Assembly: GCA_963752285.1 (NCBI GenBank)
Contig: CAVVXN010000001.1
Span: 480,001 to 544,000, forward strand
From: an uncultured Planctomycetota bacterium
Lineage (GTDB): Bacteria > Planctomycetota > PLA2 > JAEUHO01
DNA: 64,000 nt
Direction: 5' to 3'
Position numbers and translations under genes: made by a program. Shown in pieces: positions 12,272-17,560 of the stretch (within the stretch, counting starts at the first letter, position 1; every line of letters starts with the position of its first letter). The notes beneath the pieces are model-generated. The model was not told the origin of the DNA, did no database searches, and saw only the letters and a program-made list of their open reading frames with translations.

Positions 12272-12631
12272 TTACGTCGGGACGGGCGTCCAGCCCTCCG
12301 ATACGAGGCGTCCGAGGACCTCCGGGTCCTCCCGGCGCGCGCCCGCGCGGAGCGCCCCTTTGTCGAATCCCCGCTGGTCCAGGCAGCGGCCCGCGCAGTA
12401 GATCCCTCCGCCCCGCTCCGCGATCCGGTCGAGGTGCTCCCACGGCGTCCCGGGCCCGGGCTCGCGGAGGGTCTCCGCCACGCCGCGCACGCCGAGGCGC
12501 ACGCCCTCCGAGTGGAGCCAGAGCGCGACCTCGTGTCCCGCGTCCGCGGCGCGCGCCGCCGCGTGGAGCGCCGACGCCGCGCGGTCCGGGTCGTCGGTCG
12601 AATGGGCGAGGACGTAGAGGAGCCGGCTCAC
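12272..12631 (-). CDS. DsrE/DsrF-like family protein
   Basis: GTG 12631; LLYVLAHSTDDPDRA..GHEVALWLHSEGV..IYCAGRCLDQRG matches the DsrE-like pattern with conserved Cys. Confidence 0.75.
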   Translation of the reverse strand: MSRLLYVLAHSTDDPDRAASALHAAARAADAGHEVALWLHSEGVRLGVRGVAETLREPGPGTPWEHLDRIAERGGGIYCAGRCLDQRGFDKGALRAGARREDPEVLGRLVSEGWTPVPT

Positions 12632-12687: not shown

Positions 12688-12728
12688 TACGAAGACGGCG
12701 ACCCGCCCCGTAGAGGAGCGGGTCGCCG
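12688..12728 (-). terminator. Probable intrinsic terminator after the 13520-12780 gene
   Basis: Perfect 11-bp stem CGGCGACCCGC (12696-12706) / GCGGGTCGCCG (12718-12728), followed on the minus strand by TCTTCGTAT. Confidence 0.6.
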
Positions 12729-12779
12729 CAGGTATCGAGACTTCGAAGAGGAGCCCGGGTGCGTCCCGGGCGTCGCGGA

Positions 12780-13520
12780 TCAGGCGGCCTCGACCTCCAT
12801 CTGGAAGAGGTCCTTCTGCTCGCCTTCGGCCTTCTTCTGGCGCGCGTCGAGGTCTTCCTTCTCCTTGGCGATCTTCTTCGCCTCGGAGTCGTTCACCCCA
12901 CGCTGCTCCTTGTCCGAGAGGATCTGGCGCTCCTTCGCGATCTTGTCGAACTCGTTCAGCACCTTCCGCAGCGCGCCCACGTTGCGGTCGAGGTTGCCCT
13001 TGTACGACTTCTTCGCGCACTTCTGCATCGCCGACCAGATCTTCGATCCGCTGACCTTCTTGCCGTCGATGACCTCGACGACGTCGTAGTCCACGTCGAT
13101 GAAGACCATGCGCGGCGCGTCGTCACCGGTGTCGGCGAGGAGCTTGTCCTTCGCGGCCAGCTCGGGCGACACCTTGACGCAGCGGAAGAACTTCGAGCCG
13201 ATCCGGACCTTGTCCGGGTCCAGCGCGATCTTGTCGATCTTCGCCATCGCGTCCGCGTCGCCGTCCGCAACGACGTACACCCACATCGGGCGATCGAGCC
13301 GCTCCTTCGCCTCGGGACGGGCCGCGACGGGCGTCGCGGTCGAGTCGTCCGACGGCGTGACCTCGGCGTTGTTCGGTGCGATGTGCTGAGCGCTCTCCCA
13401 CTGGATCGTGAGGACGGCCATACTGGCCGCCGAACGACCTCAGCACCCTCCGATCGCGGTCTGCTGGACGCCCAGCAGCGCCACGGCGGACACCGCCGCC
13501 AGCATGAAGACCTTGCGCAT
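12780..13520 (-). CDS. Candidate secreted selenoprotein (246 aa; Sec27 at UGA 13442-13440; G-C-U-G motif) with thioredoxin-like domain and C-terminal coiled coil
   Basis: Track ORFs 13440..13649 and 12780..13421 are in the same frame and separated only by one TGA. ATG 13520 has an AGGAG RBS and encodes signal peptide MRKVFMLAAVSAVALLGVQQTAIG-GC-UGA-GRSAASMAVL. A SECIS-like hairpin follows immediately. Confidence 0.75.
13404..13439 (-). promoter_or_regulatory. Candidate bacterial SECIS element 1
   Basis: UGA-GGUCGU-UC-GGCGGCC-AGUAU-GGCCGUC-CUC-ACGAUC: 6-bp lower stem, internal loop, 7-8-bp upper stem. The apical loop contains GU and begins 16 nt after the UGA. Confidence 0.7.
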
Positions 13521-13689
13521 CCGTCGCTCCTCTCTTCCTCGACGAAACCTGCCCGGGGGCGGACACCTGGACCGACCCGGGTCTTCCATGAGCATAGCCG
13601 ATCCGACCCCCGGATGCGAACCGGCGACACCGATCAAAACGACGTGCACGGCCGCCGTGTTTCACCCCAGGGCCCCGATCTCGTCGATT

Positions 13690-14604: not shown

Positions 14605-16248
14605 ATGCGGGTTCGTCTCGCCCCGTTCGCCGCCGCCGTCCTCTCGCTCGGCCTCGCGATCGGCGCACGGGGGCCGCTCGCTCGGGGCGAGGGCGAGACG
14701 GGCGCGCGCGCCGGGTCGGACGCGGAGTCGGCCCGGATCCTCCACCTGCTCCGGCGCGCGACGTTCGGCCCCCGGACCGAGGACGTGGAGGAGGTGCGCC
14801 GCCTCGGCCGCGAGGCCTGGGTGGACCGTCAGCTCCGTCCGGAGGAGATCCCGGACCGTGAGGTGGACGAGCGCCTCGGGGGCTACGAGTCGCTCGGGCT
14901 CTCGACCTCCGAGTACCTCGCGCGGCTCGACGCCGGCCCCGCGCCGCCCCGCGTCCCCGGGCGGGGCGAGAACCCCGACGAGGTGGCGCGCCGCCGCGTG
15001 CGCGACGTGCAACGCCTGCGGAGCCTCGGCGCGAAAGAGGTGCCCGAGAGCGTCCTGCTCCGCGCCGTCTACTCGCGACGCCAGCTCCAGCAGGTGATGT
15101 GCGAGTTCTGGCGGAACCACTTCAACGTGGACGTCAACAAGGACGACGTGCGGTACTACGTCGCCGACTGGGAGCGCGAGGTGCTCCAGAAGCGGGTGTT
15201 CGGGAGCTTCGAGGACCTGCTGCTCGCGACGGCCAGGCACCCCGCGATGCTCTTCTACCTCGACAACCACGTCTCCCAGGCGCCGCGCGCCCGGGGCGAG
15301 AAGGTGCTCCAGGGACACGAGAAGCAGGACCGGACCGACGGCCTGAACGAGAACTACGCCCGGGAGCTGATGGAGCTCCACACCGTCGGCGTGGACAACG
15401 GCTACACCCAGGACGACGTGATCCAGCTCGCTCTCGTCCTGACGGGCTGGTCGATCGGGGGCCAGGGTGGAGACCGCGGCGCGTTCACGTTCCGCGCGGG
15501 CTACCACGCGGGGGGCCGGAAGCGCGTGATGGGGAAGACCGTCAAGGACGGCGGCGTCGAGGAGGGCGAGGAGGTCCTCCGCTACCTCGCCCACCATCCG
15601 AACACGCGGCGTTTCGTCTGCACGAAGCTCGTGCGCTACCTCGTCGCCGACGACCCGCCGCCCGCGATCGTCGACGCCGCGGTCGCGGCCTGGAAGAAGA
15701 CGAAGGGCGACCTCGGCGCCGTGGTGCGCGCGATCCTCCTCCATCCCGACTTCGACGCGCCCGGGAACGTCCTCGCGAAGGCCCGCACGCCGTTCGAGAT
15801 GGTGGCGGCGACGCTCCGCGCGACGCGCGCGGACGTGAAGGACCCCGGCGCCCTCCTGGCGCGCCTGGCGGACATGGACGAGCCGCTCTACCAGTGCCAG
15901 GACCCCACGGGCTACAGCGACCGCGCGGCGGACTGGACCGACGCCGGCGCCCTCGCCGTTCGCTGGACGTACGCGCGGGACCTCGTGGACGGGAGGATCC
16001 CCGGCGTCTCGATCGAGGACAGCCCGATCTTCGCCCTCGTCCGGGACGGGCCGCCCGCGTGGGAGGACGCGCTCGTCGGCGCCCTCTTCGCCGGCCAGAC
16101 GCCGTCGCTCGCGACGCTCGCGCCGATCCGGCGCCGGCTCGTCCGCCTGGAGCCGGGATGGCGGACGCTCGCGCCCGACGCGCGGGTCCAGGCGTTCCGA
16201 GACGTGGTGACGCTGATGCTCGGGTCGACCGACTTCCAGCGGCAGTGA
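14605..16248 (+). CDS. DUF1800 family protein
   Basis: HLLRRATFGP, QLQQVMCEFWRNHFNV, HPAMLFYLDN, NENYARELMELHTVG, HPNTRRFVCTKLVRYLV. Confidence 0.9.
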   Translation: MRVRLAPFAAAVLSLGLAIGARGPLARGEGETGARAGSDAESARILHLLRRATFGPRTEDVEEVRRLGREAWVDRQLRPEEIPDREVDERLGGYESLGLSTSEYLARLDAGPAPPRVPGRGENPDEVARRRVRDVQRLRSLGAKEVPESVLLRAVYSRRQLQQVMCEFWRNHFNVDVNKDDVRYYVADWEREVLQKRVFGSFEDLLLATARHPAMLFYLDNHVSQAPRARGEKVLQGHEKQDRTDGLNENYARELMELHTVGVDNGYTQDDVIQLALVLTGWSIGGQGGDRGAFTFRAGYHAGGRKRVMGKTVKDGGVEEGEEVLRYLAHHPNTRRFVCTKLVRYLVADDPPPAIVDAAVAAWKKTKGDLGAVVRAILLHPDFDAPGNVLAKARTPFEMVAATLRATRADVKDPGALLARLADMDEPLYQCQDPTGYSDRAADWTDAGALAVRWTYARDLVDGRIPGVSIEDSPIFALVRDGPPAWEDALVGALFAGQTPSLATLAPIRRRLVRLEPGWRTLAPDARVQAFRDVVTLMLGSTDFQRQ

Positions 16249-16267
16249 GCAGACCCAAGGGAGCCCC

Positions 16268-17560
16268 ATGGCCATTTCTCGACGCGATCTCCTCCGGGCG
16301 GGCGCCCTCGGCGCGGCCGCCGCGGGCCTCGGCGGCCCCCTCGCACGACGCGTGATGGCTGCGCCGGATCCCGAGGTCTCCGCGCGGCGCGTTCTCGTGG
16401 CGGTGTTCCTCCGCGGCGGGCAGGACGGCCTGAACGTGCTCGTCCCGTACGCGGACCCCCGCTATCCGGAGCTCCGTCCCAACATCCACCTCCCGCCGCC
16501 CGGCGAGGACGGCGGGGTCCTCGACCTCGACGGCACGTTCGGGCTCCATCCCGCCTTGACGGGGCTGAAGCGGCTCTACGACGAGAAGCTCCTCGCGCCC
16601 ATCGTCTGCGTGGGCTCGCCCCATCCCACCCGTTCGCACTTCGACGCGCAGGACTTCATGGAGTACGGCGCGCCCGGCGACCGGCTGGTGAAGACGGGCT
16701 GGCTCAACCGCTATCTCGAGGCGACCGCGCCCGCGGCCGGCCCCGACGCGTCGCTCCGGGGCGTCGCGATGCAGCGCCGCCTGCCCCGGTCGCTCCGCGG
16801 AGCCTATCCGGCGCTCGCCGTGCCGGCGTCCCTCGGCCTCGGCTCGCGACGGCCGCGCGACGGCGACGGGGACGACGTCCTCGACCTCTTCGACCCGCTC
16901 TACGGTCAGCCCGACGCGGCGGCGATGGGCGGAACGCGTCCGGACGAGGACCGCCTGGAGGCCGCCGGCCGCACCACGATCGAGACCTTGAAGCGGCTCG
17001 AGGACGTCCTCGCGTCCACCGGCGGGCGGTCCGCCGCGAGGTGGCCGTCCGACGCGGGCCCGCTCGGAGAGCCGCTCCGCCGGACCGCCCGCCTGCTCCA
17101 GGCCGGGCAGGGCACCGAGGTCGTCGCCGTGGACTGGAACGGATGGGACCACCACATCGGCGAAGGCGGGCCCGGCGAGGAGGGGCAGCTCCCCCGGATG
17201 CTCGGGCAGCTCGACCGCGCGATCACCGCCTTCTTCGAGGAGCTCCGTCCGATGCGCGCCACGGTCACGATGCTCCTCATGACGGAGTTCGGACGCACGA
17301 ACGCCGAGAACGGGAACCGCGGCACGGACCACGGCCACGCCAGCCTGATGCTCGCCATCGGCGGGCGCGTGAAGGGCGGGAAGGTCCACGGCGAGTGGAC
17401 GACGCTCGCGCCGGGCAAGACCTACGAGAACCGCGATCTCGTGGTCACGACCGACTTCCGCACGGTGTTTTGCGAGACGCTGACCGACTTCCTGCGCCTG
17501 CCGGCCGACCGCGAGGTCTTCCCGGGGTTCACCGGCGCGCGGAAGCTCGGTCTGTTCTGA
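16268..17560 (+). CDS. DUF1501 family Tat-exported protein
   Basis: SRRDLL Tat motif; FLRGGQDGLN, RSHFDAQ, GWDHH, TEFGRT..NGNRGTDHGHA; usual partner of DUF1800. Confidence 0.9.
   Translation: MAISRRDLLRAGALGAAAAGLGGPLARRVMAAPDPEVSARRVLVAVFLRGGQDGLNVLVPYADPRYPELRPNIHLPPPGEDGGVLDLDGTFGLHPALTGLKRLYDEKLLAPIVCVGSPHPTRSHFDAQDFMEYGAPGDRLVKTGWLNRYLEATAPAAGPDASLRGVAMQRRLPRSLRGAYPALAVPASLGLGSRRPRDGDGDDVLDLFDPLYGQPDAAAMGGTRPDEDRLEAAGRTTIETLKRLEDVLASTGGRSAARWPSDAGPLGEPLRRTARLLQAGQGTEVVAVDWNGWDHHIGEGGPGEEGQLPRMLGQLDRAITAFFEELRPMRATVTMLLMTEFGRTNAENGNRGTDHGHASLMLAIGGRVKGGKVHGEWTTLAPGKTYENRDLVVTTDFRTVFCETLTDFLRLPADREVFPGFTGARKLGLF

Follow-up and report, generated by a model that had tools for sequence, protein, structure and literature searches.

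The gene at positions 13520-12780 (-) of the window (the whole stretch of 64,000 nucleotides analyzed here, from an uncultured Planctomycetota bacterium) is a genuine selenoprotein gene that has been mis-annotated and whose family is apparently undescribed. It is a single continuous gene for a signal peptide, a G-C-U-G motif, a CxxC-less thioredoxin fold and a helical hairpin. Sequence comparisons support a read-through gene with a conserved UGA, a hairpin under selection and Cys counterparts among the homologues. In the functional reading that we prefer, the gene would encode an exported selenoprotein whose N-terminal Cys-Sec pair has a redox role and whose fold serves as a docking body; we give this statement as a whole a probability of about 0.5.

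With its in-frame TGA read as Sec, the gene (12780..13520, (-)) encodes 246 amino acids, as delineated from the sequence and from homology across the TGA over residues 1-246. The start codon is the ATG at 13520; an AGGAG ribosome-binding site (13527..13531, (-)) lies 6 nt 5' of it. The frame is open to the terminal TGA at 12782-12780, and the TGA at 13442-13440 (codon 27, context A-I-G-G-C-stop-G-R-S) is the sole in-frame stop ahead of it. The ORF lister places the start at the ATG at 13421, a codon that lies within a hairpin and has no AGGAG-like site at the usual distance. A preliminary description of this locus had drawn attention to the AGGAG site and the 24-residue signal-like leader upstream of the TGA, and to the buried ATG at 13421 with no ribosome-binding site; the sequence bears out both points. 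Residues 1-24 (13449..13520, (-)) comprise a basic start, a hydrophobic core and A-I-G ahead of the predicted cleavage site, and are assigned as signal peptide from the sequence and from homologues. They are followed by G25-C26-U27-G28 (13437..13448, (-)), the predicted mature residues +1 to +4, as placed by homologue comparison and by the TGA. An assembly slip is not the cause of this TGA: two contigs crossing the site, from public runs X1 and X3 of one study that is possibly the source of the assembly, carry TGA unchanged, and neither of them has the TGC or TGG that had been named as a refuting sign.

A search for the Sec machinery, likewise suggested in advance, found all four components in the source genome (G000; 4.64 Mb, 89% complete). 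The genes selA, selB and selD score above the curated cut-offs, selD with an in-frame TGA of its own, and a tRNA-Sec with the anticodon TCA is present. Because TGA is the main real stop codon of this genome, terminating 736 of the 994 long, clearly coding genes, a general recoding or reassignment of UGA was rejected. We detected selA in 37 of 39 genomes of the same order and in 68 of 70 distant carriers of the family; none of six genomes from other families that lack selA matches the family profile, a small sample. A crude genome-wide TGA scan, which missed the gene at 13520-12780 and hence provides no census, revealed TGA at the position of the catalytic Cys in genes resembling those for peroxiredoxin and TlpA. 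Five in-frame TGA candidates of the source genome have SECIS-like hairpins (C4:141550 (-), C5:1821586 (+), C5:65360 (+), C5:252206 (-) and C5:1051408 (-)); their contexts are peroxiredoxin-, TlpA- or thioredoxin-like (T-P-G-U, W-U-G-P-C, V-U-G-S-C, T-U-V-P-C and W-U-P-W-C).

Just 3' of the UGA at codon 27 lies a SECIS-like hairpin (13404..13439, (-)) whose upper stem closes an A-G-U-A-U loop at 13424-13420. The hairpin agrees with the one written out in the preliminary description, and its loop begins at nt 16 downstream of the UGA, as had been noted there. The 40 nt from the UGA onward fold with -20.3 kcal/mol (z = -4.4), a value that was reached by 0 of 200 shuffles; in longer windows (60-100 nt) competing folds appear (z -2.8 and -1.4), and a window beginning upstream gave -0.95. 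The model for bacterial SECIS elements in the legend to Fig. 2 of PMC13188914 asks for a loop of 3-9 nt, a G in loop position 1 or 2, a distance of 16-37 nt from the UGA and an MFE <= -7.5. Scoring of the UGA, which had been proposed as a check, was done with our own script rather than with bSECISearch, and it found a GUA loop, an A-U closing pair, a spacing of 16 and an upper stem of -12.6 kcal/mol, in agreement with this model.

Comparison with related genes argues that the hairpin is under selection as RNA. The loop Ser codon is AGT in 30 of the 31 genes with an R/I-S-x-A-S motif; AGT occurs at 2 of the 329 other Ser codons of the same genes and at 1.2% genome-wide. In the sole non-AGT gene, the loop Ser is 42 nt from the UGA and a different hairpin lies nearer. 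We aligned the stems of 29 of these 31 genes, leaving out two with a 42-nt spacing: 86% of the cells in the 8-pair stem form pairs, compared to 29-44% when the register is slid, and in 27 cells both sides have changed. Covariation amounts to 0.26 versus 0.11 after shuffling, with 0 of 500 shuffles reaching the observed value, a significance that is overstated by the kinship of the aligned genes. A strict SECIS-like test of our own (G[GU] in a loop of 3-9 nt, a stem of >=5 pairs, spacing 15-37) was passed by 71 of 101 family UGAs; the controls, true TGA stops and mid-gene codons, passed in 149 of 736 and 135 of 994 cases, respectively. The family UGAs that pass include those of long-armed members, whose hairpins are of unrelated sequence.

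Matches to the read-through protein occur in 42 of 61 related genomes. With a profile built from 48 members, homologues were detected in 97 of the 401 genomes searched across the phylum; 624 cluster representatives match the family at E <= 0.001. The family, which is large and stems from uncultured Planctomycetota, is missing from the selenoprotein catalogues checked; 13 close loci from a narrower alignment are all titled Planctomycetota MAGs, and a plasmid collection yielded no match. All 30 of the best homologous loci possess one TGA directly after the signal peptide, with homology on both sides of it. The wider set comprises 114 homologous frames from loci L005-L054 and L083-L135, a non-random sample of best matches and hand-picked distant ones from which L055-L082, largely repeats, were left out. 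In 101 of these frames a TGA follows a hydrophobic leader. The other 13 consist of one U-C copy whose frame is broken upstream, three frames with Cys only, four (L108, L111, L113 and L117) devoid of the arm and its Cys, and five Sec-less fusions to HEAT-vWA or kinase/FGE proteins. Full-length homologues with Cys at the same place read CGCC, CCC, CSSC, CACC, CEHC or CGC, and also CGGCC or CKGC; the spacing of these Cys counterparts varies. Conservation of the TGA among homologues, with Cys at the site in others, had been proposed as a check and was found. Read-through as Sec, as the preliminary description had proposed, is backed by the conserved TGA, the selected hairpin, the Cys homologues and the Sec machinery, and the TGA at 13442-13440 is almost certainly decoded in this way.

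Two to six paralogues per genome are common, and at least ten genomes carry tandem paralogue pairs. The second paralogue of the source genome (C3:484567-485283; L041:3535-4308) reads G-U-C, with the order of the pair reversed, and shares the A-G-U loop. In the fusion proteins (L047-L050 and L046) the thioredoxin-plus-hairpin module, with no Sec, is embedded in HEAT repeat plus vWA proteins of about 750 amino acids or in a protein of 1598 amino acids with Ser/Thr kinase and FGE-sulfatase domains. Because Cys-free homologues and such Sec-less fusions exist, the body appears to be functional without any chalcogen.

The G-C-U-G tetrapeptide had initially been taken as the defining motif, but it turned out to be one variant of a family that swaps its reactive residues. 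Among the 101 TGA members we found U-C (41), C-U (32), U-x(2-6)-C (13), U-U (8), other arrangements with U (6) and U-G-U (1; L135), i.e., 69 Sec-first versus 32 Cys-first members. On a quick domain tree, a careful tree search being unfinished, order and spacing of Cys and Sec changed at least 26 times; for U-U, well-supported (starred) branches of this tree force at least 4 changes. The eight U-U members (L039, L119, L122, L124, L125, L128, L133 and L134) contain two adjacent in-frame TGA codons after the signal peptide, and six of them pass the strict SECIS-like test with a loop in range of both UGAs. Translational coupling via the TGATG overlap of U-C and U-U members was considered and rejected, since the downstream domain is not in the frame of this ATG. 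Two Cys-only homologues (L043 and P0067) have a mature start H-C-D, and several Sec members read G-U-G-G-R-C-G, with the same 2/6 spacing. Of the 101 members, 67 have G and 21 have Q directly ahead of the first Cys or Sec. The proposed export signal is borne out by the leader in the sequence and by 76 of the 101 TGA-bearing homologues, in which small-x-[AGS] and then one residue precede the first Cys or Sec; from this cleavage pattern, the pair is predicted to occupy mature positions +2/+3.

We modeled the read-through protein with AlphaFold2 on a 48-row alignment (pLDDT 87, pTM 0.80; 46-61 for the low-confidence leader and motif). After the conserved R29-S30, the model predicts a short ordered helix (residues 31-37; 13410..13430, (-); pLDDT about 94 for residues 31-40). 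It is followed by a thioredoxin-fold domain (residues 38-172; 13005..13409, (-)), assigned from the model, a fold search and conservation, and by two long helices (177-206 and 211-239; 12804..12992, (-)) that would form a charged helical hairpin. The best match of the fold search was to 4ruv (Z 11.6, rmsd 2.5 over 99 residues; VIA-align), and the top 50 matches are nearly all thioredoxin folds (thioredoxins, DsbD gamma, DsbH and AGR/ERp18). The active-site position (84-89) reads ADGDAD, and there is no CxxC, UxxC or CxxU after strand 2. Both the thioredoxin-like domain lacking a CxxC and the coiled-coil-like tail of the preliminary description are recovered in the model. Only 6 of the 101 members, one well-supported clade with R-E-C-x-x-C and an N-terminal Sec, have a CxxC at this position; a few members have C-x5-C. 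Conserved residues include W41 (97/101), P78 (96/101), F112 (99/101) and R29 (86/101), as well as Pro136 (87/101), which in the model occupies the thioredoxin cis-Pro position and aligns with V-P-R of AGR3.

Two of the structural expectations did not hold. A flexible linker had been envisaged between motif and domain; the low-confidence Thr/Pro/Ala stretch (about residues 43-75) is instead predicted to be a loop inserted in the thioredoxin domain because the structural matches begin at residue 38-41. Likewise, a long swinging arm is not predicted for this protein: its arm is short, because C26-U27 lie about 4 residues from the helix that is ordered from residue 31 onward. Among other members there are Gly/Pro arms as long as about 70 residues.

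Inspection of the genomic neighborhood revealed a DsrE/DsrF-like gene downstream (12272..12631, (-); Pfam PF02635, E 1.6e-6), whose link to the selenoprotein gene is uncertain. A DsrE-like gene lies 3' of the selenoprotein gene in 9 of 30 loci (L005-L034, counted by eye), an arrangement limited to part of the host family. In the source genome, the two genes are separated by a strong 15-bp GC-rich hairpin after the stop codon (12695..12729, (-); -35 kcal/mol for a 55-nt window). This hairpin is terminator-like with a weak U tail; a consensus scan did not call it as a terminator, and such a scan found no sigma-70-like promoter. Upstream, across a gap of about 1 kb, lies a divergent DUF1800 and DUF1501 (Tat signal) pair (window 14605-17560 (+)). 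A universal operon partner was rejected since the neighbors vary by lineage. G071 carries a family gene directly upstream of selA and in the same orientation, as does G122 at two loci; in G307, a family gene and selA are divergent. These genes (L139:6198-9481, L140:2248-5415, L138:6020-8367 and L137:3-1535) come from three genomes of two families. Downstream of U-C paralogues in three genomes we noted small lipoprotein-like ORFs (L041:4483-4740, L035:5610-5843 and L036:3062-3367) that share a C-x-Q-x-C/S-C-V-W/R motif; one of them was scanned and had no Pfam match. In one distant genome, a MACPF-domain ORF (L136:2824-4620) lies downstream of the family gene.

Under the redox reading, SelB acting on the hairpin would deliver Sec at the UGA, and signal peptidase I would cleave after A-I-G (G24), so that the mature periplasmic protein would begin with G-C-U-G. 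The Cys-Sec pair, as the sole reactive center, may cycle between selenol/thiol and selenenylsulfide and thereby reduce or isomerize disulfides, peroxides or oxidized thiols of envelope partners. The thioredoxin fold, its CxxC lost in most lineages, would act together with the helical hairpin as docking body, and the pair might be re-reduced from outside, e.g., by exported TlpA-type selenoproteins of the same genome. A redox role is favored by the clade of six that keeps the CxxC along with the N-terminal Sec, and by Sec-containing peroxiredoxin or TlpA-like genes that adjoin the family gene at four loci (L012, L029, L053 and L016). A tightly defined catalytic site is disfavored chiefly by the freedom in the order of the pair and by the existence of Cys-free homologues; so many changes of order and spacing are odd for a stereochemically exact center. 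The Sec-less fusions, six members without a second Cys or Sec within 6 residues and the lack of a universal gene neighbor weigh on the same side. Framed more broadly, the family is probably an undescribed, phylum-wide exported class in which signal cleavage would release an N-terminal Cys/Sec redox or metal center whose order is free, with several lineages that would decode adjacent UGAs (Sec-Sec) from one SECIS and form a vicinal diselenide.

The same variability would suit a ligand set whose order is of no importance and whose number can change (CU, UC, UU, UGU, U-x(2-6)-C, CCC, CGCC), and the N-terminal pair and free N-terminus may bind a soft metal or metalloid (Cu, Hg, Ni, As) in a periplasmic chelator, chaperone or sensor. 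The H-C-D start of the two Cys-only homologues resembles the nickel hook of NiSOD, which fits this idea. An N-terminal Gln may cyclize and block the amine, so that the Gln at +1 in 21 of the 101 members speaks against metal binding, as do the CxxC retained in one clade and the loci examined, where genes for metal resistance or metal transport do not regularly adjoin the family gene. C-U motifs mark the organometal proteins SaoL and HgcA in the passages of a preprint (bioRxiv 10.1101/2022.07.06.499078), a further point in favor; overall, we regard a metal site as possible but rather doubtful. The family genes beside selA, the recurrent adjacent U-U and the many paralogues could alternatively reflect an abundant exported selenium sink, carrier or sensor that parks Se outside the cytoplasm or reports its supply, with one or two Sec by lineage. 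We consider this unlikely: the selA link is found in three genomes only and is absent from the source genome, one or two Se per 220 residues make a poor store, and Cys-only versions exist. Planctomycete envelopes are rich in cystine, and the N-terminal Sec or Cys might form a covalent Se-S or Se-Se link to a partner or another copy, the fold and hairpin of this structural or adaptor protein being binding modules. The tandem pairs and the occurrence of the module without any Cys or within fusions would agree with such a tether; a static link, for which no partner was identified, leaves the costly, phylum-wide retention of Sec unexplained, and we hold it to be about as improbable as a selenium sink.

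Two further alternatives concern the reading of the N-terminus itself. The preliminary description had considered I-G-G-C as a lipobox, with Cys26 lipidated and Sec27 as residue +2. A loose lipobox pattern fits the gene at 13520-12780 and four close relatives, but the other 27 of the 32 Cys-first members (with E-C, P-C or Q-C ahead of the pair) and all 69 Sec-first members fail it, and the polar Q-Q-T stretch ahead of the site is as in signal peptidase I substrates; lipidation is therefore highly unlikely. Equally remote is a TGA that is a true stop, in a pseudogene or between a leader peptide and a separately started ORF, or that is read as Trp. In its favor, 35 of the best 150 database homologues (hand count) begin exactly at the position of the hairpin Met, and Trp, which had been named as a sign against Sec, does occur at the codon (TGG) in one homologue, L138, the neighbor of a second selA in a genome whose contamination is 6%. 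The 30 of 101 family UGAs that fail the SECIS-like test also count against Sec, as do G005, G008 and G099 (92%, 57% and 90% complete), which carry TGA homologues and in which selA was not found. Against these stand a TGA conserved across dozens of families, selection on the hairpin at the level of codons, the Cys alignments, the Sec machinery and the use of TGA as the main stop codon.

The family would add a large group to the bacterial selenoproteome, one in which Sec stands at the beginning of an exported protein and not in the thioredoxin site. Gene callers leave a cytoplasmic-looking, Cys-free stub in the databases, so that the export signal and the reactive site are hidden. The natural series of C-U, U-C, U-U, U-G-U and C-C on one scaffold offers a test of Sec over Cys in a vicinal pair, and of whether one bacterial SECIS serves two adjacent UGA codons.

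In line with the preliminary description, we found no described selenoprotein family that corresponds to this protein in NCBIfam 20.0, a release that includes the models of Haft and Tolstoy 2025, or in Table 1 of PMC13188914. Pfam and NCBIfam 20.0 hold no family for the read-through protein (NCBIfam: 0 at E <= 10). In NCBIfam 20.0, the 48 members gave scattered coiled-coil matches in the 25 of 35 rows listed, and the 34 of 47 distant members scanned gave two weak coiled-coil matches; among the NCBIfam matches listed, none is to NF040734, NF033934, NF040728 or NF040863, the models considered for the C-U motif proteins. A PDB sequence search returned only weak AGR2/AGR3 and coiled-coil matches, and nothing meaningful for the CxxC-keeping L132. 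Table 1 (119 families) and the text portions of PMC13188914 contain no such architecture, no adjacent U-U motif and no mention of Planctomycetes or signal peptides. The abstract, passages and genome list of BSepDB (PMC13326102), the last including Planctomycetes, show no family of such architecture; nor does one appear in passages of the deep-Sep paper (PMC12013277), the SAO preprint (10.1101/2022.07.06.499078) or PMC10779653. Among the papers listed by full-text literature searches, none describes the family, the search for adjacent Sec being a weak one that returned unrelated words.

The nearest folds are those of DsbD gamma, DsbH and the Thioredoxin_7 proteins of the ERp18/AGR2/AGR3 type. 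Pfam Thioredoxin_7 is matched by 3 of the 48 members, and an AGR3 profile aligns weakly (E 0.011) on the active-site loop and Pro-Arg. The family differs from these proteins by the absence of CxxC/CxxS in 95 of the 101 members, the loop after strand 1, the added helical hairpin and the N-terminal Sec. G-C-U-G also stands at the chain end of mammalian thioredoxin reductase. There, as described in passages of PMC10779653, adjacent Cys and Sec are able to form a selenenylsulfide, but the motif is C-terminal and is combined with a flavin domain, whereas here it is N-terminal via signal cleavage, its order varies and there is no homology; an FAD/NADPH disulfide reductase body is absent from the gene at 13520-12780. 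Because the order of the pair swaps freely, the likeness is an analogy for one subgroup. According to passages of the SAO preprint, SaoC (Cys-Cys/Cys-Sec-COOH, with a signal peptide), KCU-star, SaoL and HgcA share the adjacent Cys-Sec, and SaoC is exported with a terminal pair; in SaoC and KCU-star, however, this pair lies at the C-terminus, in contrast to the N-terminus here. The bacterial thioredoxin-fold selenoproteins in Table 1 of PMC13188914 (Trx, TlpA-like, Redoxin, DsbA/DsbG-like and Trx7/PDZ NF041199) share with this family the UGA followed by an in-frame SECIS, the thioredoxin fold and Sec/Cys pairs among homologues, and some of them are exported; none of their NCBIfam models matched the proteins scanned. 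Their Sec resides in a UxxC/CxxU site of the fold, whereas in the family described here this site is mostly lost and Sec, predicted at position +2 or +3 of the mature chain, would not be part of the fold.
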